Source of the DNA: Callorhinchus milii
Lineage: Eukaryota
DNA length: 64,000 bases
Assembly: GCF_018977255.1 (NCBI RefSeq)
Contig: NW_024704742.1
Span: forward strand, 138,882,001-138,946,000
Direction: 5' to 3'
Made by a program: the position numbers and the translations under genes. The notes below the pieces were generated by a model. The model had not been told where the DNA came from. It was given only the letters and a program-made list of their open reading frames with translations, and made no database searches. Below are positions 4,736 through 58,300 of the stretch, piece after piece; within the stretch, counting starts at the first letter, position 1; each line of letters starts with the position of its first letter.

Positions 4736-5301
4736 CTGGGAATACAGGACACTCATGGTTAAACATTCGCTTACAAACTCAGAAAGCACCTTGTGTGCAC
4801 TGCAATGTACAGCTCCTGCAATTGACTTCTAGCTAAGGCATTATTACCCCTGGAAAGCAATCAACCAATTGACTAACAACCGGGTTCCTACTTACTGCTA
4901 GGTAAACAGAGGCATGTGGAGTAAGGAAACTTGCCCATAGTTTCGCCCTGCCTGGGAATCCAACCCAGGTTCTCTCGTTACAAGGCTAGTGCTCTACCCA
5001 CGAAGCGACAGGACTCCACATTTAGTTAAAAAGCAGCTGCAAGTTGTGTACATATACGCTAGAGGGCGAACTGCGTATTCAATTCAGAATCTTTTGTAGC
5101 ATGGAGATGATCAGCTGTAACAAAACAATTTGCACGTTTCAGGCTTTGATCTGATGGGTAGGTCATGCTGATAAGCTGGTCAAAGGAGCAGTTAAAGAGA
5201 TCGGTTCTCGCACAGGTTTTGAAATTAGAGAGAAGGAACGAGAAAAAGTCCGAGAGAAGCTCCAGAGGGCAAGTGGCTGAAATTACAGCGGCACTGGGCA
5301 T

Positions 5302-11823: not shown

Positions 11824-12143
11824 AATAATAATAATAATCCTTGCATTTGATATAGCGCTGTTCACGTCGGGAGGACGTCCCAAAGCGCTTCACAGAACAC
11901 ACAGTAAAGTGAATTGACTGTATATTTGTGGGCGAACGCGGCAGCCAATTGCGCACAGCAATGTCCCACAAACAGTCGTGGATTGAAAATGACCAATTTA
12001 TTATTGTTTTGTTTTGGAGGATTATTATTAGGCTCTGTGTGGAGTAAGGAAACTTGCCCGAGGTTTGGCCCTGACCCCCCGGGATTGAACTCCGGTCTCT
12101 CACTTGCAAAGCGAGTGCTCTAACCACTGAGCTACAGGACTCT
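11824..12143 (-). mobile_element. Young-subfamily tRNA-Ala SINE nested inside an older SINE (11746-11822 and 12150-12448)
   Basis: Complete head GAGTCCTGTAGCTCAGTGGTTAGAGCACTCGCTTTGCAAGTGAG to (TTA)n tail. The flanking sequences join into one older SINE copy. Confidence 0.85.
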
Positions 12144-12552
12144 ACGGGGCTTGTGGGCAAAACTCAGCAGCCAATCGCGCACAGCAGTGAGTGTCCCACA
12201 AACAGTCGGGGGATTGAGTGACCACGTAATTATTATTATTATTACACCTTTTATACCTTTTTTAAAAGAGATTATTACCCCCAGAAAAGCGATCCGACAA
12301 TCAACTAACAAGCGGGCTCCCACTTACTGCCAGGTAAACAGGCATGAGGAGTAAGGAAACTTTCCTAAAGTTTCACCATGCCCGGAATCAATCCGAGGTC
12401 TTCTCGCTTGCGAGGCGAGTGGTCTAACCACAACACTACAGGATTCTACAAGTTACATATTGCACAATATCCTAATTGTTCAACAATCGGCCCAGCTTTA
12501 ACCATATTCTGCTAGGTAGATCCACACGTTGACAACACATCTGAAAACTCAC

Positions 12553-15070: not shown

Positions 15071-15636
15071 CTGTAATACAACAACTACTGGTTCAATAGT
15101 GCACTGTTACTGGAATCCGCTTCCTTCATAGTGTTCAGTTCAATCAAAAGTTTTTCTTCATAATAATAATCCTTGCATTTAATATAGCACCTTATCATGT
15201 CTTTGAGACGTATCAAAGCGCTTCACAGAATATACTGTAAAGTGAATTGACTGCACACTTTGTGAGTGAAACGCAGCAGCCAACTGTATGCACAGCAGTG
15301 AGTGTCCCACAAACAGTTGTGGATTGAGTGACCAAATTATTATCATTTATTGTTTTAAAAGGATTATTACCCCCAGAAAAGCGATCCACCAATCGACTAA
15401 CAGTTGGGTTCCTACTTACTGCTGGTAAACAGAGGGGTGGTGGAGTAAGGAAACTTGTCTAAGGTTTTGCCTTGCCTGGGCATCAAACGCAGGTCCTCTC
15501 GCTTACGAGGCGAGTGCTCTAAATACTGAGATGCAGGACTTCAGTTTTACTTCGAAACGGTGAAATCAAATGCTTTTTGGGACAAATCTGACCCTGCCAG
15601 GCTCTGTGCTTGTCAGTGTCAGTGTGAGGATCTTAC

Positions 15637-15708
15637 CTTCCGGAGTAAGTTTGGGTTCGTAAGCTTTCCTCTTCTTTTGTTTCTCTCTTTTCCTCATCTT
15701 TTTGGCAA
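15637..15708 (-). CDS. NIPBL: NIPBL coding exon (exon 13 equivalent), 72 nt
   Basis: Manual translation (I)AKKMRKREKQKKRKAYEPKLTPE. Acceptor ttttacag, donor G|gtaaga. Confidence 0.95.
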
Positions 15709-16277
15709 CTGTAAAAGTTTAAAATGGTTTAGGATCTTATTAATCCCACATAAGATAGAAGTACATAGAACACTGCAGCATGGAAACAGGCCATTCAGAC
15801 CAACTGATCCATGCTGGTGTTTATATTCCACAAGCTTCCACACCCCAGGACCTTAGATTTATGTCTTATCTGAAGGACAGCACCTCCCACAATTGACTGA
15901 CTGTCAGTCAATTCCGTATGATTTCCCTTAAGAAGTAAAAGGCAACTAAGTCATGGCACAGTGGCTGAAAGCACAGTCACTGATGGTGGAACAGAGGGCC
16001 CAAGGGACATGCCAGTCCCTTGTGCCCTCCGAGCCAGTCGAGCAGAGGCAGCAGTAGTGGGTTGGGGAGTAAGTAGATCAGAGAGGTCGGAAGGTGCCAG
16101 GGCATGAAAGGATTTGTAAATGAGCTTGAGGATGTTGAAATCAATCTGTTCGGCGATAGGGAGCCAGGCAAGGACTGGGGTGATGGGAGTGCAATCTGCT
16201 TTGTGAAAGCTGCTGAAGGAAGGTGTGAGGAAATGCAATTACTCTCACTGAGGGAAGGTGGAGGCGAATGCACTTAC

Positions 16278-16472
16278 TTTCACTGAGACTCGGTGGGGGA
16301 GAACCCTCCTCAGACTCTGGGCTCTTCTCCCGATACCTGCTGCTCCCTGAGCTTCTTCTGCCATCGTGAGAATGGCTGCTTTTTCGCAACTCATTTAAGA
16401 CACGCCGGTCTCGATCTTCACACTCCCAGGCTTTATCCACCTCCTTGTCCTTCTTGTGTCTCTTTCTAGAGG
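16278..16472 (-). CDS. NIPBL: NIPBL coding exon (exon 12 equivalent), 195 nt
   Basis: SRKRHKKDKEVDKAWECEDRDRR...SHSHDGRRSSG...SPPPSLSE. Acceptor ctccag, donor A|gtaagt. Confidence 0.94.
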
Positions 16473-17219
16473 CTGGAGATCAGCAAGAGATACATAGCAA
16501 TTAGTTTATCTTTATTACATTTACTAATACAATTGACAGGTTTAAGTAGAGAATGAAGTGAGGCAGATGGTAATATTAATTAGATTCCAATGCTGCTTTT
16601 GAACAAAATATAGGTATTGGTAAAAAAAACAGAATTGGATACACGAAAGGAATAAGAGAATGGTTACTTAGAATCATAGAATTTTACAGCACAGAAAGGG
16701 ATTCGGCCCATCGTGCCTGTGCTGCCTCTTTGAAAAAGCTACCAACTAGTCCCGCTCCCCCACTCTTACCCCATAGCCCTGCACATTGTTAAGTACCCAT
16801 TTAATTCCACCACCTTTTCAGGCAGTGCATCCCAGACTGAGGAGAGTGCTCTGAGCACTGAGTTACAGGACTCCATGATGGGGAAAGGCAGGTAAAGGGA
16901 TTCCTCCCTTTGGAATAGATTGCTCTTTCAAAGAGCAGCACAGCACGATGGGCCGGATGGCTGGCCACATTCTGTGCTGTAAATTCCTATGACTCTAAAC
17001 TGCAGAAATAACAGGATTATAATTATGGATTATCCAAAGATCGTTTGAAATGTAGGGCACAGGAGGAGGCAACTCATGTTCTCCAAACCGCATCCATCCT
17101 AATCCAAATAATAAAAATCCTTACATATGTTAGCGTCTTTCATGTCAGGGGGACATTTCAAAACACTTCAAAGGATTTATTGTAAAATAATAATCCTTGA
17201 ATTGATATAGTGCCTTATC

Positions 17220-23742: not shown

Positions 23743-23783
<41 letters not shown>

Positions 23784-31002: not shown

Positions 31003-31730
<728 letters not shown>

Positions 31731-55382: not shown

Positions 55383-58300
55383 CAACAAAATTACATTTAT
55401 AGAGCGCCTTTCACGTCGCGAAGACGTCCCAAGGCGCTGGACAGTCAGGTGTCAGAACCCGAGCATGGGGGAGGGGTGGAGTAGAAGGGAGGGGTGGGGG
55501 AGGACAGAGAGGTGGGAGGGTGCCTGAAAGCACGATCAAAGAGGAGGGTCTTGAGACCGGCCTGGAAGGAGGCAAGGGAGGAAGTGAGGCGAAGGGACCG
55601 TGGGATGGAGTTCCAGAGTGTGGGGGCAGAGAGGCTGAAAGCCCGGCCACCGATGGTAGGGCAGGTTGGGCAGGAGACATGGAGCAGCCGGAGCCCACTG
55701 AACGGAGGGAGTGGGCAGGTTGGCAGGGAGTCAGCAGGTCAGAGAGGTAGGAGGGGGCGAGGCCAGGGATGGACTTAAAGGGGAGGACGAGGATCTTGAA
55801 CTCGTTCCTCTGGGGGATGGGGAGTCAGTGGAGTTGGGCGGGGGCGATGGGGTCGGGCGGGGGCGATGGGGTCGGGCGGGGGCGATGGGGTCGAGCGAGG
55901 GTGGGAGTGATGGGGTCTGGCGAGAGTGGGGGTAATGGGGTCGAGCGAGGGTGGGGGTGATGGGAAGCCGATGAGAAGGGAGTTCCTGTAATCGAGCCTT
56001 GAGGTGACGAATGCGAGGGTGAGGGTTTGGGGGCCTGAGGGGTGAGGCAGTGGCGGAGTCTGGCAGCGTTGCGGAGGTGGTGGTGGGCAGTGCTGGTCAT
56101 GGCGCGGATGTGGGGGAGAAAGGACAGTTCAGGGTCAAACAAGACCCCCAGGTTCCTGACTGGCTTAGTGAGGTTGAGTGTGCAGCCATGGAGGCTGATG
56201 CTGCCAGAGCCCGAGGTGAGGAGGCGTTGGCGCGAGCCAATCAGGAGGGCCTCGGTCTTGCTGACGTTGAGTTGGAGAAAGTTGTCTCTCGTCCAGGACT
56301 TGATGTGGGACAGGCAGTCGGTCAGGACGCCAGTGGTCCTGGAGTTCAGTGGGGAGGCAGAGAGGTAGAGTTGGGTGTCATCTACATAGTGTGGAAATTT
56401 ATCCCATGTCTGCGGACGATGTCACCAGGGGGGAGCATGTAGAGGGGGGGGGGGGACCGAGGACAGAGCCCTGAGGAACACTGCACAAGACAGTGCGGGG
56501 GCTGGAGGAGAAGCCGTTTTCTGTGACGAAATGGAGGCGGTGTGAAAAGTAGGACCTGAACCAGTCAAGGACAGAACCTTGAAGGCTGCGGTGGAAGGAG
56601 AGGCGGTGGAGGAGGATTGAGTGGTCCAGGGTGTCAAAGGCGGCGGAGAGGTCAAGGAGGACGAGGAGGCAGAGGGAGCCCTGGTCACACATGGTCAGGA
56701 TGTCATTTGCAATCTTGACCAGAGCAGTGTCCATGCTGTGGGCAGCACAGAAACCCGATTGGAGGGGTTCATGGAGGGAGTGGGAGGAGAGGAAAGAGCA
56801 AAACTAGGAGGCAACGGCTCTCTCGAGGACATTAGACAGAAAAAGGAGGTGGAAGATGGGCTGGTAGCTGGATAGTTGTGATGGGTCAAGGGAAGATTTC
56901 TTCAAGGTGGGGGTGATAGTGGCTGTTTGAGGGGGTAGGAACAGTGCCAGATGACAGGGAGATGTTGATGATGTCGGCGAGTAGTGGGGCAAGGAGGTGG
57001 AGCTGGGATTTAAGGAGAGGGGTGGGGATGGGGTCCAGGGAGCAGGAGGTGAGCTTCATGGAGGATATGGTGGCGATAGGTTCAAGGTGTGGAAGGAGGG
57101 ATGGGTAGTGGTCTGAGAGTGTGATGGGGGTTAGGGAGAGGGTCGAAGTTGGGAGGGCAGTGGCTGCTGAGCGGATTCCCTCGATTTTGGACTCAAGGAG
57201 GTCCAGCATTTCCTTGCAGTGGGAGTCGGAGGAAAGAATCTGCGAGGCTCGTCGGGGAGGGCAGAGGAGCCGGTTGGTGGTTGGTGGTGGAGAACAGGAG
57301 CCTGGGGTTGCCCTTCACCTCCAGGATTAACCTGGAATAGAAGGACGATTTGGCTGAGGCGAGAGAGGAAAGGTAGGTCTTGATGAGGTCCAGCCAGATG
57401 TGCCGGTGAACCGTTCGGCCGGATTTGAGCCAAGTGGGTTCGGCAGCCGCACCTGGCCCTTGAGCGAGGAAAGGTGGCTGGTGAACCAAGGTGAGGATCA
57501 GGAATAGGAGGCAGTTTGGGAGGTGAGGGTGGGCAAGGACGTCAAGTGTGGTGGAGAGGGTACTGTGGAGGAGTGTAAACGCAGAGGATGGGTTGGTGCG
57601 GGAGGTGGACCAGAGGGGGAGGAGTTCAGTGGACTCCAGGGCAGCGGAGAGGGACTGCGGGGAGATCTTCTTCCACGGCCGGTAGGAGATGGTGGTAGGT
57701 TTGGAGGCAGTGGGGAGACGGATATGGGAGTTGAGGGAAATGAAATGGTGGTCAGAGATGGCCTTGTCAGTGATGGTGACATCCGAGACACTGAGGCCCC
57801 AGGTCGAGCGGGTGACCGTGGGTGTGGGTGGCAGAGTAGATGTGGAGGGAGAGGTTGAGAGAGGAGAGGAGAAGTCTGAGGAGATGGAGCAGGAGGGGGT
57901 GAAGTGGAGGTTGAAGTGGCCTAGGATGATGAGGCGGATTGAGCAGAGGCAGAGGGAGGCTAGAACGGTGGCGATGTCAGTGATGAAGGAGGATTTTGGA
58001 GGGTGGTAAATTAGGAGAATTTTTAGAAAGAGGTGGGAGGGACGGCAGAGAGTAAGGTGTTCGAAAGAGGGGAATAAACCGGTGGGATTGGGGGATAGGG
58101 CAAGTGATGCCCTGGAGATGAGGGCCATACCACCGCCACGGCAGTTGAGGTGTGGGGCATGGTGGTAGGTGTAGCCGGTTGGTGTGGCCTCAGTGAGGGG
58201 GAAGGTGTCACCTGGGTTGATCCAGGTTTCCGGAGGATGAGAATATTGACGGCCAGGGTCTTGTTGCAGATGGAGCAGACATTTTGAAGGCCAATGCGGA

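Follow-up and report, generated by a model that had tools for sequence, protein, structure and literature searches.

A tandem repeat across the exon-12 donor of Callorhinchus milii NIPBL spells SPPPSLSE a second time and probably leaves a disabled pseudo-donor

Introduction

Why should eight residues encoded at the end of an exon be spelled again, with only synonymous changes, in the intron that follows? The question is raised by the minus strand of a 64,000-nt stretch of Callorhinchus milii DNA (contig NW_024704742.1; hereafter the window, in whose coordinates all positions are given), where the end of an NIPBL exon and its splice donor are followed immediately by copies of themselves. An earlier note on this DNA had proposed that the intronic copy was or is translated, or that it is maintained as a frame-shifting donor coupling splicing to NMD in a dosage-sensitive gene. 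Our analysis points to another answer: copy 2 is probably an untranslated, disabled pseudo-donor left behind by an old tandem duplication, with only the first donor spliced in RNA contigs.

Results

The exon upstream of the repeat belongs to NIPBL

The exon at 16472-16278 (minus strand) encodes a peptide that matched a Callorhinchus milii NIPBL entry at 100%, and RefSeq NIPBL isoform X1 was mapped exon by exon across the window by tblastn. The protein of this isoform matched PF12765, the cohesin-loader HEAT repeat by which NIPBL/Scc2 is recognized. By homology the label exon 12 fits, as the exon (16278..16472) is 195 nt long with phase 1-1, compared with the 198-bp exon 12 of human NIPBL, an exon with a weak acceptor that undergoes physiological skipping according to the available passages of PMC4100155. 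Contig pieces of exon 12 were found in all three RNA-like runs (the run types, RNA-like or DNA-like, are guesses, no run being recorded as RNA), and exon 13 (15637..15708, minus strand) was joined to it at 15708-16278 with CT..AC borders in runs X1, X2 and X5. Two synonymous serine-codon variants within exon 12, at 16321 and 16339, occurred in runs X1, X2 and X9 and were absent from X5.

Several other features of the window were recorded along the way. In the UniRef C. milii model, the last 113 residues derive from a multi-copy repeat (11825-12163), and RefSeq isoform X1 instead continues into real exons at 4789 and 3210; the UniRef tail is likely a gene-model artefact. Poly-G tracts at 31056-31573 (518 nt) and 23743-23782 (40 nt) are likely sequencing or assembly artefacts, and the only Rfam match, a weak tRNA-like one in intron 13 (15468-15539, E 0.4), is likely the head of a SINE.

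A 35-nt unit is repeated in tandem across the exon-12 donor

On the minus strand, a 35-nt unit spanning the exon-12 donor is present about 2.6 times in tandem, and the same period was reported independently by Tandem Repeats Finder. Copy 1 (16268..16302) contains the 24 coding nucleotides of SPPPSLSE, an A at position -1 and the authentic donor AAA/GTAAGT, with its GT at 16277-16276. Copy 2 (16233..16267) is intronic, again spells SPPPSLSE and carries the weak pseudo-donor AGA/GTAATT (GT at 16242-16241), and copy 3 (16212..16232, the low end being approximate) is partial and decayed and has no donor. Copies 1 and 2 are identical at 27 of 35 letters (77% identity), far above chance, since the best shifted self-matches at eight other NIPBL donors reached 15-19 of 35.

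The two 24-mers differ at seven positions (16265, 16262, 16256, 16255, 16254, 16253 and 16244), and every one of these differences is synonymous, so that the earlier description of a tandem copy of the exon end and its donor, encoding SPPPSLSE twice with silent differences only, is confirmed. Four of the seven are adjacent and form a single contiguous block (16253..16256, minus strand), which reads GAGT in copy 1 and TTCC in copy 2 and contains the serine codon switch. The synonymous GAA/GAG difference coincides with donor position -2. The 4-nt block might have come by template switching from inverted exon sequence upstream; inspected by eye, the match is inexact, and this origin was set aside.

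Decay in copy 3 is seen directly as one deletion, one insertion and two substitutions relative to copy 2. The TCC block and two CCT codons are common to copies 2 and 3, which share five of the seven differences from copy 1. No more than two changes set copy 2 apart from both copy 1 and copy 3, and copy 2 carries neither an indel nor a non-synonymous change. Positions 16138-16695 are spanned by a contig of the DNA-like run X9 that has 0 gaps and three variant letters, none of them inside the repeat; the 35-nt period is therefore not an assembly slip, and an assembly indel that turned an in-frame 36-nt repeat into one of 35 nt was ruled out. The period and the decayed third unit of the earlier note thus stand. 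Behind the array, starting about 50 nt from donor 2, lies a decayed LINE-type repeat fragment (15955..16190, minus strand) with 68-82% matches to several window copies and high multi-copy depth; the copy at 55828 is preceded by an ORF with a weak RVT_1 match (E 8e-4).

Donor 2 is weakened and only donor 1 is seen joined to exon 13

Scored against the U1 consensus, donor 1 matched 7 of 11 positions and donor 2 matched 5 of 11. Two differences fall within the donor 9-mer, and both weaken donor 2: the GAA-to-GAG change removes -2A, and the sole intronic difference removes +5G. In real donors without +5G, -1G is almost invariant (PMC8283771, in the passages available). Neither donor 1 nor donor 2 has -1G, so +5G matters here; donor 2 possesses neither of the two letters, at least one of which is expected of a usable donor. 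Judged from the letters, both changes point to a donor being lost rather than kept.

The joint from donor 1 to exon 13 (16278-15708) was present in contigs of all three RNA-like runs, which come from two studies. No joint at 16243, the position expected for donor 2, was among the joints listed for these runs, whose contigs were obtained without NMD inhibition and drop rare and NMD-degraded forms; exon 11 lies outside the covered stretch. The comparison of donors 16277 and 16242 joining to 15708, suggested in the earlier note, therefore came out positive for donor 1 in three of three runs and negative for donor 2 among the joints listed, at the level of contigs. Unspliced sequence was also present, as an intronic contig of run X2 covers 16092-16254. 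All six C. milii proteins that span the junction read SPPPSLSE-IAKK, the product of donor 1. The doubled motif occurred in none of 340 anchored NIPBL proteins (362 examined), a redundant set whose first search was biased to forms containing exon 12.

Splicing at donor 2 would lengthen the exon by 35 nt, translated as SKCIRLHLPSVR with copy 2 out of frame, and lead to a premature stop at codon 4 of exon 13, which bears out the frame shift that had been predicted for it. In the frame of copy 2, a TAA within donor 1 blocks every upstream entry, including read-in from exon 12. The sole frame-open route by which copy 2 could be translated is a micro-exon at 16272-16243 whose acceptor would be the AG at +4/+5 of donor 1; no such form was seen in the printed segments of the NIPBL proteins, a search of low sensitivity for a 30-nt piece. 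With an in-frame TAA, and with neither a doubled motif nor a micro-exon form among the 340 NIPBL proteins, the proposal that copy 2 is translated today finds no support. Pfam gave no match on the read-through frames, and the ESM Atlas search returned nothing above 0.82.

The synonymy is real but modest under fairer nulls

Seven random hits would all be synonymous with P 2-3e-5. When copy 1 was taken to evolve under purifying selection and copy 2 neutrally, exact calculation gave P 1.3e-4 to 3e-4 for seven differences and 4e-4 to 1e-2 when 4-9 differences were considered. Counting the four adjacent changes as one event together with three single changes gave P 1.3e-3 to 1.6e-3. The argument of the earlier note that neutral decay should not preserve the peptide thus holds insofar as the outcome is improbable under neutrality, but it was overstated (P about 1.5e-3), because its null ignored both the selection on copy 1 and the adjacency of the four changes. 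The synonymy shrinks under these fairer nulls but persists, and what is left is real but modest for a case picked from a large scan. The likelihood ratio of both copies being functional over copy 2 being neutral was 2-209 from the 24 coding letters alone and 0.1-28 with 11 junction letters added, the values depending on the assumed multi-hit rates.

The motif and the start of intron 12 in other vertebrates

SPPPSLSE is kept in most vertebrate NIPBL proteins. Among turtles, a frog, a lizard, a bird and teleosts, the motif serine is replaced by Pro, Asn or Arg and the length of the Pro run changes, so that the site is labile and accepts multi-letter changes even while it is coding. The Asn and Arg replacements suggest an AGY ancestor, in which case copies 2 and 3 would carry TCC as a derived codon. 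A literature search on phosphorylation of NIPBL S1150/S1160 returned nothing on topic.

Searching with the exon plus intron read-through retrieved 16 proteins in nine clusters, all unspliced ORFs of other vertebrates and none chondrichthyan-looking. Ten of these ORFs stay open for at least 12 codons, and nine of the ten (seven of eight clusters) fit 0-3 of the 8 motif residues at the 35-nt register. The exception, P0369, a fish-like exon-12 read-through on an ENA contig of 694 nt, can accommodate 6 of 8 motif residues at a spacing of exactly 35 nt and also has SVR at a register equal to that of C. milii. A fit of 6 of 8 residues arises in 1.7-5.3% of trials with random open frames, and it was solely the tail of P0369 that carried this protein through the search (exon-only E 0.1). 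Its fit is probably that of a chance candidate brought up by selection, and we treat it as a lead, not as support. The read-through ORFs P0365-P0377 of several vertebrates begin G/R/S/C-K/E-W/C, with the window counterpart at 16277-16271, which suggests conservation of T at +6 and G at +7 in the intron-12 donor. A search of metagenomes for orthologous intron DNA gave 78 pattern matches, none of them confirmed, and all 17 motif-plus-donor matches were not NIPBL.

Four of the nine listed NIPBL isoforms of Rhinoraja longicauda (P0019, P0153, P0155 and P0163) carry 11 extra residues ending in F-T-V at the exon 12/13 junction. An acceptor lying 33 nt before exon 13 is the likely source of the insert, whose frame is closed by a stop in the C. 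milii window. These skate isoforms are probably not products of donor 2, since the F-T-V end matches the letters of the C. milii exon-13 acceptor.

Discussion

What has to be explained is a peptide that survives in an intron, and four readings compete with a disabled pseudo-donor. One holds that copy 2 is the vestige of an alternative exon end that diverged synonymously while it was coding and is now dead, either through a duplicated exon 12 that was later truncated or through an in-frame 36-nt alternative donor that was later frame-shifted. Seven of seven synonymous differences and the 2-209 ratio from the coding letters speak for it, and its best argument is the serine switch, since serine island switches are common at, and typical of, conserved coding sites in the available passages of PMC7954308. 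The five differences common to copies 2 and 3 either predate the split of these copies or arose on copy 1, and the similarity of spacer 2 is no counter-argument if this spacer is a later copy of spacer 1. Yet the array repeats every 35 nt at both of its steps, and deriving it from a 36-nt ancestor takes additional events; a search of intron 12 turned up nothing of the remaining part of a second exon 12, and no doubled-motif protein occurs among the 340 anchored NIPBL proteins. On balance we consider a past coding role unlikely. A living micro-exon would explain the kept peptide in full: exon 11 would join a hypothetical, so far unobserved exon at 16243..16272 (minus strand) through the AG inside donor 1 (gtaAG), and this exon, of 30 nt, phase 1-1 as in exon 12 and with the stop-free frame xHSPPPSLSE, would replace exon 12 and keep only SPPPSLSE. 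The physiological skipping and weak acceptor of human exon 12 (PMC4100155, in the same passages) favor such a route. However, the acceptor is AAG, preceded by purine-rich sequence and by several other AGs close at hand, where a YAG and a pyrimidine tract would be expected, and the donor lacks both -1G and +5G; the joints listed for the contigs of three runs, over a stretch outside which exon 11 lies, include none at 16243, and the isoform is absent from the NIPBL proteins examined. It is very unlikely that a micro-exon of this kind replaces exon 12; just as doubtful is the wider idea that the exon-12 donor doubles as an acceptor and that tandem duplication gave rise to a micro-exon used in rare or tissue-specific transcripts, with P0369 as another relic of an ancient arrangement.

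The remaining two readings keep copy 2 for reasons other than its peptide. If donor 2 were a maintained frame-shifting donor whose coupling of splicing to NMD tunes NIPBL dose, the added 35 nt and the stop at codon 4 of exon 13 would fit, its RNAs would be depleted from contigs, and the unspliced intron contig of run X2 (16092-16254) would be in keeping with it. But donor 2 is weakened by both differences in its 9-mer, the listed joints include none at 16243, NMD use neither needs the peptide nor would select for it, and in arrays of this type the pseudo-donors downstream usually stay silent (PMC1557585, in the passages available); the NMD donor of the earlier note is therefore unsupported, and we regard it as highly improbable. 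Copy 2 might also be retained for its nucleotide sequence, serving beside donor 1 as an RNA structure or a pyrimidine-rich splicing element, and its synonymous look would then arise because copy 1 drifted only at silent sites. In favor of this, copy 2 has hardly any private change while copy 3 decayed. Against it, folding of 16195-16330 was no better than that of shuffles (z -0.33), Rfam gave no match over the array, and Asn or Arg at the motif serine in other vertebrates would make AGY the ancestor and TCC derived. We give this reading, too, very little weight.

A disabled pseudo-donor accommodates these observations best. Slippage or unequal crossing-over may have made the array, after which the upstream and stronger donor would win. 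As use of donor 2 leads to a premature stop, changes that weaken it would be tolerated or even favored. About four events could then account for the kept peptide: copy 1 would have been free to change only synonymously, one synonymous change would double as a donor-weakening change, and one multi-nucleotide replacement would have landed by chance on the serine codon. The spelling of the peptide is thus probably kept partly by luck. If so, the locus adds one more junction-spanning tandem repeat, of little consequence, and at the same time shows cleanly how a frame-shifting donor that competes with the authentic one decays in a dosage-sensitive gene; it also warns against taking a short duplicate as translated because all its differences are synonymous. 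Should the micro-exon or the past coding role prove real, it would instead illustrate the birth of an exon from a duplicated exon end via a dual-use splice site and would single out SPPPSLSE as a functional motif.

Known systems resemble the locus to different degrees. At dual-specificity splice sites, one site acts as both donor and acceptor. The hypothetical micro-exon is similar in its dual use of a donor as an acceptor and in being a 30-nt exon that preserves the frame; here, however, there is no pyrimidine tract by the AG, the donor is weak and no reads were seen. Poison exons and other unproductive splicing are alike in that use of donor 2 would make a premature stop, but donor 2 is weak and its junction is not among the joints listed. 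The human NIPBL variant without exon 12 concerns the same exon with the same phase and indicates that splicing around it is flexible; it is produced by skipping of the whole exon, and the available passages mention no second donor, duplicate or micro-exon (PMC4100155).

No report on the C. milii NIPBL duplicate was found in the literature covered, which excludes most subscription papers and all supplements. The array is real and new at the level of the locus, and it is of a known kind, the junction-spanning tandem repeat with pseudo-donors. Its closest described case is the 37-bp minisatellite in IVS7 of human F7, whose downstream pseudo-donors are silent (PMC1557585, as far as its available passages go). 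In both arrays the first unit spans the exon-intron boundary, the period is not a multiple of three, donor copies lie downstream and only the most upstream donor is seen used, which for NIPBL holds in three of three RNA-like runs at the level of contigs, where rare forms can be lost. Among the later NIPBL units, copy 2 retains a GT donor and copy 3 has none. The passages on F7 describe 5-9 identical, activatable pseudo-sites in a length-polymorphic array (PMC1557585), whereas NIPBL has about 2.6 diverged units, one weakened pseudo-donor and a peptide kept in the copy. Nor is the latter a VNTR in the strict sense, as its units are 77% identical and the array was the same in one DNA-like run, few individuals being sampled. 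By analogy, the NIPBL array would work as the F7 minisatellite does, with the upstream donor used and the downstream copy silent.
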